A stretch of 64,000 nucleotides of DNA from assembly GCA_965203275.1 (NCBI GenBank), contig OZ241865.1, forward strand, positions 1,664,001-1,728,000. Direction: 5' to 3'. This DNA comes from Bdellovibrionales bacterium. GTDB lineage: Bacteria; Bdellovibrionota; Bdellovibrionia; Bdellovibrionales; JAUICD01. Both the position numbers and the translations under genes were made by a program. Below the pieces are notes generated by a model. It was given only the letters and a program-made list of their open reading frames with translations. It searched no databases and was not told the origin of the DNA. This document shows, piece after piece, positions 19,827-30,687 of this stretch. Every line of letters starts with the position of its first letter. Within the stretch, counting starts at the first letter, position 1.

Positions 19827-19969
19827 TTTAAAATCCTCCTTGAGCTTGTTAAAATTGATTTTTTACTATACAATAAACTTTGAGGACTGTCAAGAAATAA
19901 AAATTTATAAACTTATTTTTGTATAAATACAAGCCATGGTTAGATTTTAACAAATTACAGAGGTCAAAA

Positions 19970-22024
19970 ATGACAAATTCTATACTAGGTCTTCAACTTA
20001 TTTTAGAGAAAGGAGAAGGCCATAAAACTGAATTTAAAGAGAGCTTAAGTTCAGGATTAGATAAAACCATAGTGGCTTTTGCTAACTCCTCTGGAGGTAA
20101 AATCTATATTGGTATTACTGATCAAGGAAGGATTAAAGGGCTTTCTATTACAAATAGGCTCAAAGCTCAAATAGAAAATATTGCAAAAAGCTGTGATCCC
20201 AGAGTGGCTATTTCTATTCGAGAAATAAAAAAAGAAAAGATATTAGTAATTACTGTTAAAGAAAGTAAATCAAAACCTCATAAATGCTCTTCTGGTTTTT
20301 ATATTCGCTCAGGGGCATCCTCTCAAAAGCTTACAACAAAAGAAATACGAGCATTTATGGAAAATGAAAATGTCATTAGCTTTGATAGTGTATTTTGTAA
20401 AAAATTTGTTTATAGTAAGCATTTTGATAAAGAGAAATTATTTTCATTTTTAGATAAAGCAAAAATTACTTACAATAGAAAAGATATAATACCATTACTA
20501 GAGAACCTAGATGTTGCAAAAAAAAAGGGTTCTAAAATTATTTTCAATAATACAGGTGTTCTTTTTTTTGCTAAGAATTTAGATGATATTTATCATCATA
20601 CAAAAATCTCATGTGTTCGTTTTAAGGGAATAGAAAGAGTTCATATTTTAGATCGGAAAATATTTAACAATGATATGCTTAGCAACATCAATAATGCTCT
20701 TTTATTTTTAGAAAATCATCTTCAATTAGAGTACAGAATTACTTCTAAAAGCTTACAAAGAACAGAAGTATTAGAAATTCCAAAGGTTGCTTTAAGAGAA
20801 GCCATTATTAATGCTGTTACTCACAGAGATTATCTTAATCAAGGAGCTAATATAAGCATAGAGATATATGATGATAGAGTAGAAATTTCCAGTTTTGGTA
20901 GTTTGCCTAAGGGGATCAGCTCAGAAAATTTCGGCAGAAAAAGCATCCTAAGAAATCCTATTATTGCTAATCTTATGCTCAGGACAGGATATATTGAACA
21001 AATGGGAACAGGTATTGAAAGAATGAAAAGTTTAGTCAAAAAAGCAGGTTTAGATCCCATTAAATTTGAATTCAATTCTTTCACAACAGTTGTCTTCTAT
21101 CGTCATCCTTTATTATTATTTTTTATTCGTCAAATTCTATCCAAAGTCTATCCAAAAGCTCTAACAAATGCAGAAATTAACAAAGAACTTGAAGAAAGGT
21201 ATGACATATCCAAACACACTGATCAAGATCAAACAAAATACAAAGCTGGGACTTCATATCAGGCTTTAAAACAGCTAAAAGACATGAAAATAGTTGAACA
21301 ACTAGGAGGTAGAGGAACATGGAGACTTGCGAGTAAAGACGTCGGTAATGATGTCGGTAATGATGTCGGTAAAGATGTCGGTAATGACGTCGGTAATGAC
21401 GTCGGTAATGATGTCGGTAATGACGTCGGTAATGATGTCGGTAATGATGTCGGTAAAGATGTCGGTAATGACGTCGGTAATGATGTCGGTAATGACGTCG
21501 GTAATGATGTCGGTAAAGATGTCGGTAATGATGTCGGTAATGATGTCGGTAAAGACGTCGGTAATGACGTCGGTAATGATGTCGGTAATGACGTCGGTAA
21601 TGACGTCGGTAAAGATGTCGGTAATGATGTCGGTAATGACGTCGGTAATGATGTCGGTAATGACGTCGGTAATGACGTCGGTAATGACGTCGGTAATGAT
21701 GTCGGTAATGACGTCGGTAATGACGTCGGTAATGACGTCGGTAAAGATGTCGGTAATGATGTCGGTAATGACGTCGGTAATGATGTCGGTAATGAATTGA
21801 AGACAGAGTCTAGGAGAATTCTTAAGTTATTGAAAATATTAAAGCTTATAGATAATAATAATTTTTCTGTTGCTTTATTTGCAAAACAGCAAGGAATAAA
21901 TAAACGCACAATAGAAAGAGATATAAAGTTTTTAAAAGATAGAGGGTTCATTTCCATTGAAGGGAAAACAAAATCTGCAAGATACAAGACCACAAAAAAA
22001 TATAAACGTTTAAAAAAAAATTAA
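19970..22024 (+). CDS. Schlafen/AlbA_2 + ATP-binding (HATPase_c_4-like) + wHTH protein with DVG(N/K)x38 linker
   Basis: [56 protein letters not shown]-terminal [14 protein letters not shown] 19970 preferred as start. Confidence 0.88.
21338..21793 (+). repeat. 12-bp tandem repeat GAYGTCGGTAAW x38
   Basis: 456 bp counted directly. Confidence 0.97.
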
Positions 22025-24632: not shown

Positions 24633-24846
24633 AAACTCCAACCGAAAAAAATATAACTTGAGTATGTACTTTAGGTTCTAAAGCATTGACTGTAATGAGT
24701 TTTTGCATCTAAAAAATTTCATCCTAAACTCCTAATTCTTGACAAATTTTCAAAAAGAAAGCTATAAAAATAGCTTGCCAGAAAGAGGATAAAAGATTAA
24801 AGTGACTAAAATGGGAAAAGTTTAAAGAATAAGAATAGGAAATAAA

Positions 24847-25437
24847 ATGAATACAAAACTACCTATCAATAGTAAATCTTTACTACTTTCCATAATTGGG
24901 CTTCCAGAAAGTGATCTTTCAGGTGAATTAGGTGGGATTACAAGATTGCAAAAACTTGTTTTTTTACTTGAAAGAGAATACGGCATTCAAGCAAGTGAAG
25001 ATCAAGAGTTTGTCCCTTACAAAGCAGGACCATATTCTGCAAAATTATATGATGACTTAGAATTTCTTGAAAATCTTGGATATCTTAAAAGTGAAATTGT
25101 AGGAGAAATGACACACGAAGAAGCCCTTGAAATTGATGCTCTCAATTTTGAAGATTTTGTTTCTTCGAATAGTGATGAAAGGATAGGATCTGCAGATGCC
25201 TATCTTGAAAGAAGCTTTCAGCTTACAGAAAGAGGGAAGTCAAAAGTTAAGGAGTTATTGAACAAACCTGATTATAGGCCTCTAGTAGAGGGTATTAAAA
25301 AAGTTAAATCTAAATACGGAAAATATTCTCTTTCAGATTTACTTTATTACGTTTATTCAAAATATCCTGAAATGACAACAGAGTCTGAAATTAAAAACAA
25401 AGTCTTAAGCTCTAAAAGCAAGGGCTGGTTAGTGTAA
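24847..25437 (+). CDS. SocA/Panacea(DUF4065)/YwgA-like winged-helix protein
   Basis: GITRLQKLVFLL...FVPYKAGPYSAKLYDDL...LLYYVYSKYPE. Confidence 0.65.
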   Translation: MNTKLPINSKSLLLSIIGLPESDLSGELGGITRLQKLVFLLEREYGIQASEDQEFVPYKAGPYSAKLYDDLEFLENLGYLKSEIVGEMTHEEALEIDALNFEDFVSSNSDERIGSADAYLERSFQLTERGKSKVKELLNKPDYRPLVEGIKKVKSKYGKYSLSDLLYYVYSKYPEMTTESEIKNKVLSSKSKGWLV

Positions 25438-26024
25438 TGATTGAAGTATTATTTACATTTCATAGCACATCAGTTATTGCAGCTTTAATGTATTATTTTA
25501 AATTTAGTCAAAATGGATCTGCATATTTTAAAGAAAATCGTCAATTTATTAGCAATATTAAAAACAATATAACAGATGAACTGACCAAGGAAATATCTCA
25601 ATTAGTTACCCCTCTAAATGTTATTGAACTACATCTACAAGAAGGAAAAATAACTTATGATAAGAGGAATATAAATCCTCCTAAAGGAGAAAAATTTAAA
25701 AATTGGTTAGGTAATTATCTGATTAAAGAAATGAACTTTTTTATTCTGTATTACGAGTTTAAAAAAACACATATAGCGTGGAAAAAATGGTCGGCTTTTT
25801 TAAAAGGATATTCTATCTTTGTTGCAATATTTCAGATTTTGAACCTTTTAATATGTTTTTATTTACTTTATTTTAATACAATTGATCTTAATGAATGGAA
25901 AATTTTGATTTGCTCTGGATTACCGGCTGTAATTTTTTTAGTTGTAGGTATACTTATGATTTTTTATAAAGATACTTTCAAGAACAAAATAATAAATATG
26001 AGAGATGAATATCATGGATTATAA
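25437..26024 (+). CDS. Membrane protein (2-3 TM)
   Basis: Hydrophobic segments; TAATG coupling with the upstream gene. Confidence 0.7.
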   Translation: MIEVLFTFHSTSVIAALMYYFKFSQNGSAYFKENRQFISNIKNNITDELTKEISQLVTPLNVIELHLQEGKITYDKRNINPPKGEKFKNWLGNYLIKEMNFFILYYEFKKTHIAWKKWSAFLKGYSIFVAIFQILNLLICFYLLYFNTIDLNEWKILICSGLPAVIFLVVGILMIFYKDTFKNKIINMRDEYHGL

Positions 26025-26427
26025 ATACGAAAAGAATTTACATTTATACATTAGGAGATATTTTATCAATAAATCTTTTAAACCTTATGAAGAGTTGAAA
26101 TTTTATGATAGGAGAATTGACATAGTGGCTTATTCTGCCCCTAAAAAAAAAATTATTTCTGTTGAAGCTAAGTTATCTAATTGGTATAAGGCATTTCAGC
26201 AAGCATTAATATATCAACTTTGTTCTGATTGGGTATATATTGCTATGCCAGAAGGTAAATTAAAATGTATCGATCAAAAAAAAATGAAAAAAGAAGGTAT
26301 TGGATTTCTTGCTATTTATTCATCAAATCGCTGTCGTGAGCTTATTAAACCACGTCGTTCTAATAAAAATATGCGATCTTATTATAAAAAAGACTTAATT
26401 AACTCAATTAATAGATGTTTGAGGTAA
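26005..26427 (+). CDS. Small PD-(D/E)XK nuclease-like protein
   Basis: E..RIDIV..ISVEAKL..AFQQALIY..DWVYIA. Confidence 0.7.
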   Translation: MNIMDYKYEKNLHLYIRRYFINKSFKPYEELKFYDRRIDIVAYSAPKKKIISVEAKLSNWYKAFQQALIYQLCSDWVYIAMPEGKLKCIDQKKMKKEGIGFLAIYSSNRCRELIKPRRSNKNMRSYYKKDLINSINRCLR

Positions 26428-26433
26428 AATAAC

Positions 26434-27756
26434 GTGCAAAATTTTTTGAGATATAGCAGTCATTCAGAAAAAAAATATTTTGAAAAAATGTTTCGATTTT
26501 TTGATGGTATTATTTTTTCAGCTAACCTATTGGAGATCACTCCTTCAGCTACAAGTAGCCTGATCATAAAGTTTGCTGGAAAAAAGAATAAACAGCCTTA
26601 TATTATAGATCCAATGACCTATGTCTTTGGAGAATTATATTATGGAAAAAAAAAGAGGACAGACTTAAATTGGATTACTTCAGACGGAAAAGGATCAAAA
26701 ATAAAGAACTCCTATAAAAAATTAGCCCATTCATTAGGTCATACTTTCCAGCAATGTATAGAAAAAAGAAAAGCAATATCAATTCAAGATTTACAAAATG
26801 ACAATAGAAGGAAAGATATATGCAAAACAACTATTGAATATCAAAAAAAACAAATTTCAAATATTTTGAGTAAAGATCGGGAAGATTTTGTTGACGATTT
26901 TAAAGAAGATATACCTGAACCAGGTATGATTATTACTCCTTATTTTTTTATTCACCCAGGTAAAGAATTAGAATGCTTGGATATAATTGATAAGATAGCT
27001 ATAGATTCCATATCTTATGAAAAGTCATCTCTGTATATAAAATTTTGTTTTAATAAAGAAATGCTTTTAAATTCAAAAGCTATTCAAAAAATATTAAGTA
27101 TTTGTGATAGAGAATTTAAAGGTATTTGGTTATGGATAAATAACTTTGATGAGAAAAAAGTAAACTCTAAATATCTTATAGCATTCAAAAATCTTATTGA
27201 ATCTATTTCTAAAAAAGAAAAAGAAATATTTAATAGACATGGAAGTGGATATTCAATGATGTTATCTAAGTTTGGAATGAATGGAATATCAAATGGAGTT
27301 GGATATGGAGAGAAAAAGGGCATAATGCCAGTCTCAGGACAAGGCACTCCACCTGTTAATTACTATTTTCCAAAATTATATAATACTTTTGGAGTTCCAG
27401 ATATAGAAAGAGCCTTTAGTGATATCGGAGTTAATTCTCCAGAAACTTTTTTTGAGCATATTTGTGATTGTGTCATCTGTAAAGGGGTTATTGATCAGGA
27501 TATTTCTAATTTTAGAAACTTTGGTAATCAATATTCTTCAGATCCAAATACAAAAAAACAACTAACAGTAGCAGCTACAGAATGCACACGTTATCACTAT
27601 TTATTATGTAAAGTTAAGGAAAAAAAATACATCCAAAATGCTAGTTTAGAAACAATTATTAAAGACTTAAAAAACTCTTTGCCTATTTCTGAAATAGATA
27701 CTCTTAAATCAGAACATATATTAAGATGGATAGAATCCCTTAATGATAAGGAGTAA
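26434..27756 (+). CDS. Hypothetical protein, probable TIM-barrel (TGT/beta-protein-like) with CxCxxC..H zinc site
   Basis: YIIDPMTY, IITPYF, C-terminal CDCVIC...YHYL; the fold is an inference. Confidence 0.55.
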   Translation: MQNFLRYSSHSEKKYFEKMFRFFDGIIFSANLLEITPSATSSLIIKFAGKKNKQPYIIDPMTYVFGELYYGKKKRTDLNWITSDGKGSKIKNSYKKLAHSLGHTFQQCIEKRKAISIQDLQNDNRRKDICKTTIEYQKKQISNILSKDREDFVDDFKEDIPEPGMIITPYFFIHPGKELECLDIIDKIAIDSISYEKSSLYIKFCFNKEMLLNSKAIQKILSICDREFKGIWLWINNFDEKKVNSKYLIAFKNLIESISKKEKEIFNRHGSGYSMMLSKFGMNGISNGVGYGEKKGIMPVSGQGTPPVNYYFPKLYNTFGVPDIERAFSDIGVNSPETFFEHICDCVICKGVIDQDISNFRNFGNQYSSDPNTKKQLTVAATECTRYHYLLCKVKEKKYIQNASLETIIKDLKNSLPISEIDTLKSEHILRWIESLNDKE

Positions 27757-28099: not shown

Positions 28100-29310
28100 G
28101 GTTCACGCAAAATGGTCATTTGTTTCCCTAAAATTGAACTAGCCTCTGGCTACTTTTGAGCTGGATCTTCAATTTATTTCTTAAATTTCAAAATCATTGC
28201 CCTGAGACCAGATTCTTTCCCATTCATATCATTAGCTTTTATCACTTTTTACTCATTTGGCTTCGTTATTTAATGCTTCAAATTCAAAAAATGATTGCGA
28301 ATGGTAATTGGCAGTTAGCCCGACGACTTTCGTCGTCGATCAAAGGCTGGCTACCTCAAAAGCTTGTTCAATTTTAGGAGGAGGATCGCCTTGTCTCTTC
28401 ACATGATGTTAAGGAAAAAGTTTTTTTTGATGCCGGGTTGCCTGACTGCCGGATCCCAGATCCCGGATCTCGGAAAAAATCAAATTTAGCTTTAAGTATT
28501 TTTACACAGTTTATATAAAAAAGCTCCTAATTTATCAGCTTGTTTTGCTAATTCCATACAACCAACAAATTCTAGATCCAATATTGCCTGAGTTGTTTCA
28601 CTAAAAGTGGTTGGCTCACTCAAAGTGAACTGACCTCTGGTCACTTTCTGGCGATGACCACGATGGCTTTCGCCATCGATAAAATGGTCATCGCCTAGAA
28701 AGCCTGTTCACTTTGAGTAAGGAGGATCCCTTCGTTTTTTTACACAATGTTAAGGAAAAAGTTCCTTTTTTTATTTTTTTATTCTTTTTAGATTCTGCGT
28801 AACCATCAAAAAATGAAGAATATTATGAGTGGGAGGCGGTGGTAGGCTGAAGATCTTCCGCAGACTCGCTTGCTCTCCAAAAGCAAGCGAAGGTTGAGGA
28901 CTTCGGAAGCCTGCCTCCGCATTCCACTCATAAAAAACATACAAATAGAAAAGCAGAATCGAAGGGCGGGGGGTGGGGTTAGGGAGTTAGCTGTTTCACT
29001 AAAAGTGGTCTGACCTCTGGTCACTTTCTGGCGATGACCACGACGGCTTTCGCCGTCGATAAAATGGTCATCACCTAGAAAGCCTGACCACTTTTAGTAG
29101 AAAGGATCTCCTTGCTTTTTAACACCATGTTAGGGAAACAAGATATTCGTCTTTTTAGATTTTTTTCTAAAAGATGGGGAAATTAGGGTTTGAAAATTAG
29201 AAATTCAGTGATTTCAATAAGTTAATACTGTGACTTTTGTATAAAAGTTACAGTATTAAGTGTTTGTAATTGTTAGACTTTTTTAGGTCGACTTTAGAAA
29301 TTTCTCATTT
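28100..29310 (+). repeat. Mosaic cluster: interrupted element A (28123-28417), A (28615-28758), module E (28759-28986), A (28994-29138), module D (29139-29310)
   Basis: Units recognised by identity to copies elsewhere in the window. Confidence 0.88.
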
Positions 29311-29409: not shown

Positions 29410-30687
29410 ATGAAAAAATATATTTTTATCCTATTTATTGCTTTGCTTGTTTCTAGTGATTCTCTATCTATGGACCTAGGGAAGACTTGTGTTGGAGTCC
29501 TTATGTCAAATTTAAAACAAAAAGTTATTAAAAAGCCCTTAAGTGAGAGTGAATTATTGAATCTAAATAATAGGTTATTAAATCTTGTTCGTGCCAGCGG
29601 CCGTACTAGATTGATAAAGAAAGTGCTAGAAAATGGTGCTAACGTCAATTATCAAAACGAAAATGGCAATACGGCTTTAATGGTGGCTAGTTATGAAGGA
29701 GATATAGAGATTGTAAAGTTATTGCTAAAAAAGGGAGCTAACGTCAATCTTCAAAACAAATATGGCATGACGGCTTTAATGTACGCTAGTTCTAAAGGCC
29801 ATATAGAAATTGTAAGGTTATTGCTAGAGGTTAGAGCTAGTGTTAATCATCCTGAAATTGTAAGGTTATTGATAGAGTTTAGAGCTAACGTCAATCATCA
29901 AGACGAAGATGGCATGACGGCTTTAATGTTGGCTAGTTCTAAAGGCCATATAGAAATTGTAAGGGCATTGCTAGAGGCCGGAGCTAACGTCAATCTTCAA
30001 AACAAAAATGGCAATACGGCTTTAATGTATGCTAGTCATGAAGACCATATTGAAGTTGTAAGGGCATTGCTAGCGGCCAGAGCTAACGTCAATCATCAAG
30101 ACGAAGATGGCGATACGGCTTTAATGTATGCTAGTCATGAAGACCATATTGAAGTTGTAAGGGCATTGCTAGCGGCCGGAGCTAACGTCAATCTTCAAAA
30201 CAAAGATGGCGATACGGCTTTAATGTATGCTAGTCATGAAGACCATATTGAAGTTGTAAGGGCATTGCTAGCGGCCGGAGCTAACGTCAATCATCAAGAC
30301 AAAAATGACAATACGGCTTTAATGGTGGCTAGTCTTGAAGGCCATATTGAAGTTGTAAGGGCATTGCTAGCGGCCGGAGCTAACGTCAATCTTCAAAACA
30401 AAGATGGCAATACGGCTTTAATGTATGCTAGTTCTAAAGGCCATATAGAAATTGTAAGGTTATTGCTAGAGTTTAGAGCTAGCGTCAATCTTCAAAACTC
30501 TGGTGGCTGGACGGCTTTAATGGTGGCTAGTCGTGAAGGCTATATAGAAATTGTAAAGTTATTGCTAAAGGCCGGAGCCAACGTCAATCTTCAAGATAAA
30601 GAAGGCAAGACAGCTCTATGGTTTGCTAGAAATAAAGGACGTACTGATATTGAAAGACTATTAAAAGAGGCCGGAGCTACAGAATAA
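29410..30687 (+). CDS. Secreted ankyrin repeat protein (~11 repeats)
   Basis: Signal peptide; repeated GNTALMYAS..HIEVVRALLAAGANVN. Confidence 0.95.
   Translation: MKKYIFILFIALLVSSDSLSMDLGKTCVGVLMSNLKQKVIKKPLSESELLNLNNRLLNLVRASGRTRLIKKVLENGANVNYQNENGNTALMVASYEGDIEIVKLLLKKGANVNLQNKYGMTALMYASSKGHIEIVRLLLEVRASVNHPEIVRLLIEFRANVNHQDEDGMTALMLASSKGHIEIVRALLEAGANVNLQNKNGNTALMYASHEDHIEVVRALLAARANVNHQDEDGDTALMYASHEDHIEVVRALLAAGANVNLQNKDGDTALMYASHEDHIEVVRALLAAGANVNHQDKNDNTALMVASLEGHIEVVRALLAAGANVNLQNKDGNTALMYASSKGHIEIVRLLLEFRASVNLQNSGGWTALMVASREGYIEIVKLLLKAGANVNLQDKEGKTALWFARNKGRTDIERLLKEAGATE

Follow-up and report, generated by a model that had tools for sequence, protein, structure and literature searches.

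What do a Panacea-like protein, a small membrane protein, a nuclease, and a protein with the zinc motif of tRNA-guanine transglycosylases (TGTs) do together in a single operon? This question is raised by four translationally coupled open reading frames (ORFs), P1 to P4, at positions 24847-27756 on the + strand of a 64,000-nucleotide (nt) stretch of a Bdellovibrionales bacterium genome (assembly GCA_965203275.1, contig OZ241865.1, positions 1,664,001 to 1,728,000; hereafter the window). We propose that they form a conflict system that is self-contained and moves horizontally, most probably one of anti-phage abortive infection built around a toxin-antitoxin (TA)-like pair, a reading to which we give slightly better than an even chance. 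The four ORFs are:

P1, 24847-25437, + strand: 196 amino acids (aa); predicted Panacea (PanA/SocA-like) protein with an acidic insert mid-protein; proposed antitoxin or regulator of the effector.
P2, 25437-26024, + strand: 195 aa; helical soluble part followed by a predicted C-terminal transmembrane (TM) hairpin; proposed membrane-disrupting effector.
P3, 26005-26427, + strand: 140 aa; predicted minimal PD-(D/E)XK nuclease.
P4, 26434-27756, + strand: 440 aa, GTG start; TIM barrel of the TGT superfamily that includes a zinc subdomain (CxCxxC..H).

The P1 and P2 genes share one base (TAATG), which both ends the P1 stop codon and begins P2; P3 starts 20 nt before P2 ends, and 6 nt separate P3 from P4. 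With a GC content of 0.280, as compared to 0.358 in the remaining window, the cassette is the AT-rich, tightly coupled four-gene operon reported in a preliminary description of this DNA. The same description named P1 a SocA/Panacea-like protein, P2 a membrane protein, P3 a small PD-(D/E)XK nuclease, and P4 a TIM barrel of the TGT fold with a CDCVIC..H site, and these assignments held up on the evidence below, with P1 as a probable, divergent Panacea member. Its wider reading, an uncharacterised anti-phage or TA system that couples such a barrel to nuclease and membrane effectors, is supported in part.

A fixed three-gene core with an exchangeable fourth gene

The preliminary description had set co-occurrence of the genes elsewhere as a test of its reading. 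When one genome per species was scanned, the same set was found at 79 loci besides the window, in Acidobacteriota, Planctomycetota, Bdellovibrionota, Gemmatimonadota, Pseudomonadota, Bacillota, Bacteroidota, Chloroflexota, Spirochaetota, Verrucomicrobiota, Saccharimonadota, and other phyla. Homologues of P1, P2, P3, and P4 were detected by tblastn at 72, 8, 59, and 79 of these loci, respectively, and clustering over all 80 loci, window included, placed the four proteins at 73, 34, 71, and 80. Further clusters near P4 comprised a second TM protein cluster (14 loci) and a cluster of ∼450-aa proteins (18 loci); every other neighbour cluster was present in four loci or fewer. P1, P3, and P4 form a strictly co-occurring core, and the fourth gene is exchangeable.

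The ∼450-aa proteins are SIR2-like, with matches to Pfam SIR2_2 (E 6e-7), PADLOC SIR2 (2e-12), and Aga_SIR2 (5e-13), and at least 90% conservation of the motifs GAGxS, NWD, and HGS and of four cysteines across the 18 sequences. Among the 68 loci with a complete core, a TM protein was found between P1 and P3 in 50, a SIR2 protein accompanied the core in 17, and only a fragment was present in one; the remaining 12 of the 80 loci were cut by contig ends or had lost P3 to the ORF filter. The genes are arranged as P1-TM-P3-P4, as P4-SIR2-P1-P3 (15 loci), or as P1-P3-P4-SIR2 (3 loci), and the SIR2 gene lies directly 5' of P1 in those 15 loci and not in the other three. The Halanaerobium copies L060 and L071 are of the SIR2 type. 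Because SIR2 replaces the membrane protein in 17 loci, the swap strengthens a defence or TA reading. Exchange between SIR2 and TM effectors is a recurrent pattern in SIR2-bearing defence systems. Both forms of the exchangeable gene appear to be typical cell-killing effectors, either a small membrane protein or a SIR2.

P2 itself contains TM segments predicted from hydropathy at residues 126-144 and 156-174, and it matched no family in Pfam, PADLOC, NCBIfam, or PHROG. Its homologues share 11-32% identity with the window copy, with E85 as the sole invariant residue, and P2 appears to evolve fast. The P2 and second TM clusters are related over the last TM segment and tail only (probability 90%).

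The cassette is horizontally acquired

A P4 tree was calculated with a quick method and Shimodaira-Hasegawa-like approximate likelihood ratio test (SH-aLRT) support, and phyla are intermixed throughout. One clade of 32 rows holds all P2-type loci and places the window beside a Bdellovibrionales metagenome-assembled genome (MAG; support 99). Within a 40-row clade, two SIR2 groups are nested among TM loci, a pattern that needs two changes. Among 61 genomes (the host plus 60 relatives at the level of genus, family, or order), a P4 homologue was found in the host alone. The cassette is horizontally acquired, and since a same-genus genome has only an SPFH gene in common with this region, the borders of the insertion could not be drawn.

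The same four genes, in the same order, are present on the mobilizable Arthrobacter plasmid pSI-1 (NC_010494.1; locus L110, 3384-6212), where all are annotated as hypothetical and a relaxase is adjacent. Profile matches of the plasmid proteins were 2.7e-41 for P1, 2.7e-6 for P2, 2.2e-16 for P3, and 6.5e-27 for P4. The plasmid P4 (409 aa) is a distant actinobacterial version that lacks the Cys motif and retains the D-P, P-Y, W..E, and SHGVG motifs. No tblastn match to the cassette was found in phage genomes, and a fold search of BFVD returned only weak matches (best E 4.4e-4, template-modelling scores 0.31-0.37).

Two loci deserve separate mention. The P4 proteins of a Hyphomonadaceae MAG (L020) and a Phycisphaerales MAG (L023) are almost the same (end branches 0.0065 and 0.034), which points to either a very recent transfer or a binning error. 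At L069 (1972-7347), the cassette is interrupted by ∼2.6 kb containing an opposite-strand 531-aa ORF, with P1 and fragments of the TM gene on one side of the insert and a shortened P3 together with P4 on the other.

A cassette that travels in this way could be a plain addiction module of mobile elements with no anti-phage role, in which P1 neutralises P2 or SIR2 while P3 and P4 serve as further toxins or stabilising accessories. The PanA-like P1-P2 pair with its 1-nt overlap, the mobilizable plasmid, the patchy distribution, and the transposases and integrases near several loci are all consistent with such a module. However, stabilisation alone would not call for four genes that are strictly inherited together and include two conserved enzyme-like cores, a SIR2/TM swap is typical of immune effectors, and TA and defence roles are not exclusive according to excerpts of a published analysis (PMC10440598). 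We consider plain addiction an unlikely explanation.

P4 is a TGT-fold barrel outside the TGT/DpdA enzyme family

P4 matched no family in Pfam (no hit at E ≤ 1), NCBIfam, PADLOC, or PHROG. A word-indexed search returned 57 homologues, of which all named ones are hypothetical, and a profile search of 1.84 billion representatives returned 1054 at E ≤ 1e-3 and 531 at E ≤ 1e-30. P4 defines an unannotated family of about a thousand 50%-identity clusters; the nearest clusters in the ESM Atlas are all labelled 'hypothetical protein', none with a Pfam family. Fused forms were also sought, and no hits of 771-2200 aa were returned, which is weak evidence for their absence. Two apparent P4 fusions among the representatives look like deletion products.

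While the P4 profile found nothing below E 0.9 among Protein Data Bank (PDB) sequences, the fold could be placed from a predicted structure. The AlphaFold2 model (29 sequences; predicted local distance difference test (pLDDT) 90.5, predicted template-modelling score (pTM) 0.90) contains a beta/alpha barrel of eight strands and, after it, a helical C-terminal part; strands 3 and 4 are separated by a helical insert of ∼100 residues. Foldseek placed QTRT1 and TGT at the top (E 1.8e-4) and DpdA at rank 11, and upon re-alignment of its top chains all 50 listed were TGTs, with Z scores of 19.4-21.3. A scan of 48,161 representative chains, run independently of Foldseek, gave five top matches that all belong to the TGT superfamily:

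ArcTGT: Z 21.3, root-mean-square deviation (rmsd) 3.3, 299 residues aligned.
Bacterial TGT: Z 19.2.
QTRT2: Z 16.3.
DpdA (7ui4): Z 16.1.
Cap10: Z 14.3.
Generic TIM barrels: Z 13.7 or less.

The zinc-site residues C344, C346, C349, and H388 do not vary among the 29 homologues aligned, and CxCxxC is present in 188 of 190 full-length P4 proteins.

At the level of sequence, P4 and the canonical enzymes are far apart. The TGT family PF01702 detected only the canonical tgt in the host genome, not P4, and a local hhalign comparison of P4 with 30 canonical TGTs aligned only the 7-column Cys motif (probability 1.4%), for which reason residue-level mapping onto TGT was not possible by sequence. Several genomes of the host's phylum were seen to have a second TGT match in open frames of ∼670-700 aa, about twice the usual length.

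Conservation within the family was read against the strands of the model. The positions conserved across 72 full-length homologues lie at the C-terminal ends of the strands or directly beyond them, namely N31, D59-P60-T62, P169-Y170-F171, W234, E240, N267, G270, position 287, G292, and E293. D59 is the sole Asp that reaches 85% conservation, and the remaining acidic residues that are conserved are all Glu (E240, E293, and E396). Three active-site Asp residues, acting as general acid/base, in base recognition, and as nucleophile, are invariant in TGT and DpdA according to excerpts of a structural study (PMC10164549). P4 has one of these at most, D59, which lies after strand 3 within 'IDPxTY' and which, judged from motif and strand spacing rather than superposed coordinates, would occupy the general acid/base position. 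By the same kind of strand spacing, again short of superposed coordinates, the nucleophile Asp would fall at P4 residue 287 (27292-27294). This residue is His in 99% of the 72 homologues and Asn in the window copy, and the closest relatives of the window P4 have Asn, Ser, or Thr there; the sub-clade that includes the window copy has changed a likely active-site residue. P4 is a TIM barrel, as the preliminary description had required for its reading to stand, and a member of the TGT fold superfamily; judged by catalytic residues, it stands outside the TGT/DpdA enzyme family.

The public copy of P4 is 422 aa long and begins at an internal ATG at 26488, which cuts off the conserved first strand. 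Since residues 1-18 are conserved in homologues, with K13 invariant, the GTG at 26434 is supported as the better predicted start.

Could P4 itself be the poison? On this account P4 would be a toxic enzyme that, for example, excises or exchanges a tRNA or rRNA base, with P1 as its antitoxin and with P2 or SIR2 and P3 secondary. D59, E240, and E293 are conserved at or just after strand ends, and the TGT fold and its zinc subdomain bind tRNA in known enzymes. The exchangeable part of the cassette is P2 or SIR2, however, not P4, and no fused or stand-alone P1-P4 pairs were seen among the loci and P4 proteins examined. We regard a toxic P4 as very unlikely.

DNA modification

The preliminary description had further inferred from the zinc motif that P4 may exchange bases in DNA as DpdA does. 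In its full form, this would be a Dpd-type system resembling restriction-modification (R-M), in which P4 swaps a base in host DNA (preQ0 or another) to mark it as self and P3 cuts unmarked DNA. The fold and zinc site that P4 has in common with DpdA, the intact motif of P3 as a nuclease of the restriction-endonuclease fold, and the presence of both QueC and the canonical tgt in the host all speak for such a system.

Against it stands, in the first place, the single conserved Asp. In addition, no queuosine- or preQ0-synthesis gene and no DpdB-like gene is conserved beside the cassette across the 80 loci, the exception being one locus (L076) with a DpdB-like ParB domain protein nearby. QueC was matched at full length in 13 of 20 carrier genomes; four more, including two cultured Halanaerobium isolates, had only short N-terminal PP-loop matches (≤73 of 210 positions), and three had no match at all, genome completeness not being given for these seven. 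This distribution weakens a preQ0-inserting role, while the use of another base would be compatible with it. A Dpd-type system also offers no role for the membrane or SIR2 effector or for the Panacea protein. The claim of DpdA-like base exchange is weakened because a single Asp is conserved, preQ0 genes are not linked, and 7 of 20 carriers gave no full-length QueC match, and we consider a Dpd-type system distinctly unlikely.

P3 and P1

P3 residues D39, E54, K56, Q66, and G100 are invariant in 49 sequences and compose a D..ExK..Q motif. The AlphaFold2 model (pLDDT 94.9) has a restriction-endonuclease-like fold, with the best structural match to 3dnx (Z 15.4, rmsd 2.6, 127 aligned), followed by the nuclease domain of PaqCI (10.9), 2okf (10.3), and NucS (9.5). 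Weak sequence matches were obtained to NucS (E 0.012), UPF0102, and Hjc, and PADLOC returned noise only (E 0.016). P3 is thus best described as a minimal PD-(D/E)XK nuclease with an intact predicted active site. We label it MmcB/SPO1766-like, as 3dnx is an uncharacterised protein that presumably belongs to the MmcB repair-protein family.

This match is one of two points in favour of a housekeeping operon for nucleic-acid repair or RNA modification, the other being that base excision repair includes TIM-barrel enzymes. Such an operon would not be expected to be found in none of the 60 relatives searched, to have an atypical GC content, to occur on a plasmid, or to include SIR2 or membrane partners and a Panacea protein, and we find a housekeeping role scarcely credible.

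P1 family members matched Pfam SocA_Panacea (PF13274) at E ≤ 0.01 in 23 of 48 cases (best 1.3e-6). Window P1 matched the PADLOC model PDC-M19A at 2.9e-15 over the Panacea core only (52 of 294 profile positions), and other partial PADLOC matches were to Specificity_I and DarG. No solved relative was found when the P1 profile was compared to PDB sequences. The candidate toxin gene P2, with its 1-nt overlap, lies well within the 100 nt that are allowed between a PanA gene and its adjacent toxin gene.

Genomic neighbours and surroundings

Pfam analysis of 121 flanking ORFs (loci L001-L040) gave a mixture of housekeeping genes, transposases and integrases, and defence-type genes, the last including RES, a STAND ATPase, a 1096-aa methylase, type I R-M, SNF2 with NOV_C, AAA_15/AAA_21, and others. 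Several loci adjoin known systems, such as R-M, DRT, TIR, or DarG genes. In a Sumerlaeia MAG (L040, 689-11044), the cassette has a DUF499/DUF3780 pair on one side and a complete Gabija system (GajA 4e-132, GajB 1.5e-58) on the other. PADLOC analysis of 126 flanking ORFs (L040-L079) gave 27 matches at E ≤ 1e-8, in 17 of 38 loci. As a control, ten carrier genomes were sampled likewise at two arbitrary places each, and the resulting 78 ORFs gave 11 matches in 7 of 20 places, several of them to generic kinase, helicase, or ATPase models.

Upstream of P1 in the window, a gap of 214 nt contains a weak promoter candidate:

Promoter-like hexamer pairs, 24775-24848, + strand: in the 214-nt gap 5' of P1; weak, consensus match only.

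Two sites scored 9/12 against the consensus, and the upstream region showed no excess of such sites over shuffled sequence (17 observed, 20.5 expected). Downstream, the repeats that had been taken to border the cassette are real, but they lie on the downstream side only. Two 143-nt units at 28616 and 28996, 87% alike and spaced by ∼380 nt, occupy non-coding DNA (28379-29149). They belong to a repeat that is dispersed through the host genome, where 96 matches were obtained on scoring 40 of 557 candidates. They are not specific to the cassette, lie outside it, and are incidental.

Two other proteins of the window were noted from their translations. A 701-aa ORF (19919-22024, + strand) contains a run of several dozen VGND/VGKD tetrapeptides flanked by an N-terminal globular part and a C-terminal basic helix-turn-helix-like tail, and a 425-aa protein (29410-30687, + strand) has an N-terminal hydrophobic leader and about ten ankyrin-like repeats of 33 residues.

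A proposed mechanism of effector release

Given the fixed core trio and the exchangeable effector, we propose a scheme of sensing and release. P3 and P4 would make up a nucleic-acid sensing or processing module for the infection signal. The TGT-type zinc subdomain and base pocket of P4 would bind a nucleic acid or base with altered chemistry; judged from strand spacing, 99% of the family has His, and the window copy Asn, at the place of the TGT nucleophile. P1 would keep the effector, whether P2 or SIR2, silent in the way that PanA antitoxins restrain small membrane toxins, until a phage cue leads to its release. P2 would then depolarise the membrane, while in the sister systems SIR2 would destroy NAD+, and growth of the infected cell would stop before phage production. 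The scheme draws on two published points as well: PanA antitoxins are often paired with, and neutralise, small membrane toxins with C-terminal TM helices, as described in parts of the PanA survey (PMC8832971), and Panacea has been proposed to act as a sensor (PMC10440598, in excerpt).

A more specific version can be imagined, in which P4 is a re-tooled sensor of 7-deazaguanine-type or other hypermodified bases in phage DNA or RNA that has lost transglycosylation, kept the zinc subdomain and base pocket, and together with P3 triggers release of the suicide effector from the Panacea protein. If true, the cassette would contain an immune receptor for which the base modification that shields a phage from restriction is itself the alarm signal. 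We offer this version as a speculation with a small chance of being right.

Several observations weigh against the broader proposal of abortive infection. No tested function was found for any member of the four families. The window P1 matched SocA_Panacea only at E 0.024 and 16 bits, below the cut-off of 25.7. The isolate that contains the TM-type locus L057, Pseudomonas cuatrocienegasensis CIP 109853, is entered as 'noPanA' in the PanA survey (supplement file 1), from which it follows that the P1 family, apparently a divergent Panacea branch, was left uncounted there. No domain common to P2 (or the second TM cluster) and SIR2 was found that would explain how both come under common control. 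The mapping of P4 residues onto TGT follows strand spacing, not superposed coordinates, and because Asn287 stands in the window copy where 99% of homologues have His, this P4 may work differently or less well than others. Many cassette flanks are housekeeping genes, and enrichment in defence genes over the control was not significant either at E ≤ 1e-8 (27/126 vs 11/78, p 0.27) or at E ≤ 1e-30 (15/126 vs 3/78, p 0.07). Since these differences are not significant, the island context is not counted as evidence here.

Comparison with known systems

P4 resembles the TGT/DpdA enzymes (PF01702) in its (beta/alpha)8 barrel, whose topology they share, and in the CxCxxC..H zinc subdomain at the C-terminal end. 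Unlike those enzymes, P4 has no PF01702 match and no profile similarity beyond the Cys motif, keeps one of three invariant Asp, has the helical insert between strands 3 and 4, and sits in a cassette with a nuclease, a Panacea protein, and an effector rather than with preQ0 genes.

A precedent for use in immunity is Cap10 of the type IV cyclic oligonucleotide-based anti-phage signalling system (CBASS), a TGT fold that was remodelled from tRNA modification and re-used in a defence operon, as described in excerpts of a recent preprint (bioRxiv 10.1101/2025.04.06.647259). According to the same excerpts, the zinc site is gone from Cap10 and the catalytic and base-reading Asp remain, the reverse of P4, and its partners are a QueC homologue and a CD-NTase, neither of which is in the P4 cassette.

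The fold of P4 also matches QTRT2, as given above, and here the pattern of retained residues is similar. QTRT2 is a non-catalytic TGT subunit in which the zinc site is kept and the catalytic Asp is lacking, and it provides a precedent for a binding rather than a catalytic role. In its combination of a kept zinc site and a lost catalytic Asp, P4 would resemble a binding module of this type. In contrast to P4, which has its own strongly conserved strand-end residues, QTRT2 is a eukaryotic partner of QTRT1 in tRNA modification.

The P1-P2 pair resembles PanA-PanT modules, in which a Panacea gene lies directly 5' of, and coupled to, a gene for a small protein with a C-terminal TM region. Proteins of this type are the commonest validated PanT apart from translation inhibitors, according to parts of the PanA survey, which also excluded operons of more than three genes (PMC8832971). 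The cassette differs in being a four-gene unit whose P3 and P4 find no equivalent in PanA-PanT, and P1 appears to be a divergent Panacea member. The stand-alone SIR2 in the effector slot of 17 sister loci recalls the SIR2 defence systems (Thoeris ThsA, SIR2-HerA, DSR, and pAgo-SIR2), but the sensor parts TIR, HerA, and pAgo are absent and the window cassette has a membrane effector instead. The only candidate system in PADLOC with a likeness is PDC-M19, through P1; the likeness is confined to the Panacea core, the other three proteins (P2, P3, and P4) are without a PADLOC match, and no mention of PDC-M19 was found in the papers searched.

Absence of a match to any named system, which the preliminary description had made a further test of its reading, was borne out in PADLOC v2.0.0, Pfam, and NCBIfam. 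No description of such a cassette was found in the literature searched; the main text of DefensePredictor makes no mention of TGT or Panacea. The P4 family, with its thousand or so clusters, has no name in the libraries and papers searched. Taken together, the cassette looks like an undescribed multi-gene system of the abortive-infection or TA-like kind, with exchangeable effectors, on an undescribed branch of the TGT fold. A Panacea antitoxin-like protein that works alongside interchangeable SIR2 and membrane effectors in a system of four genes would link classical TA modules to multi-component immunity. If the cassette is a defence system, prokaryotic immunity would have recruited the queuosine-pathway TGT fold independently for a third time, the earlier cases being Dpd and type IV CBASS, and here with the reverse choice of retained features, the zinc site kept and the catalytic Asp lost.

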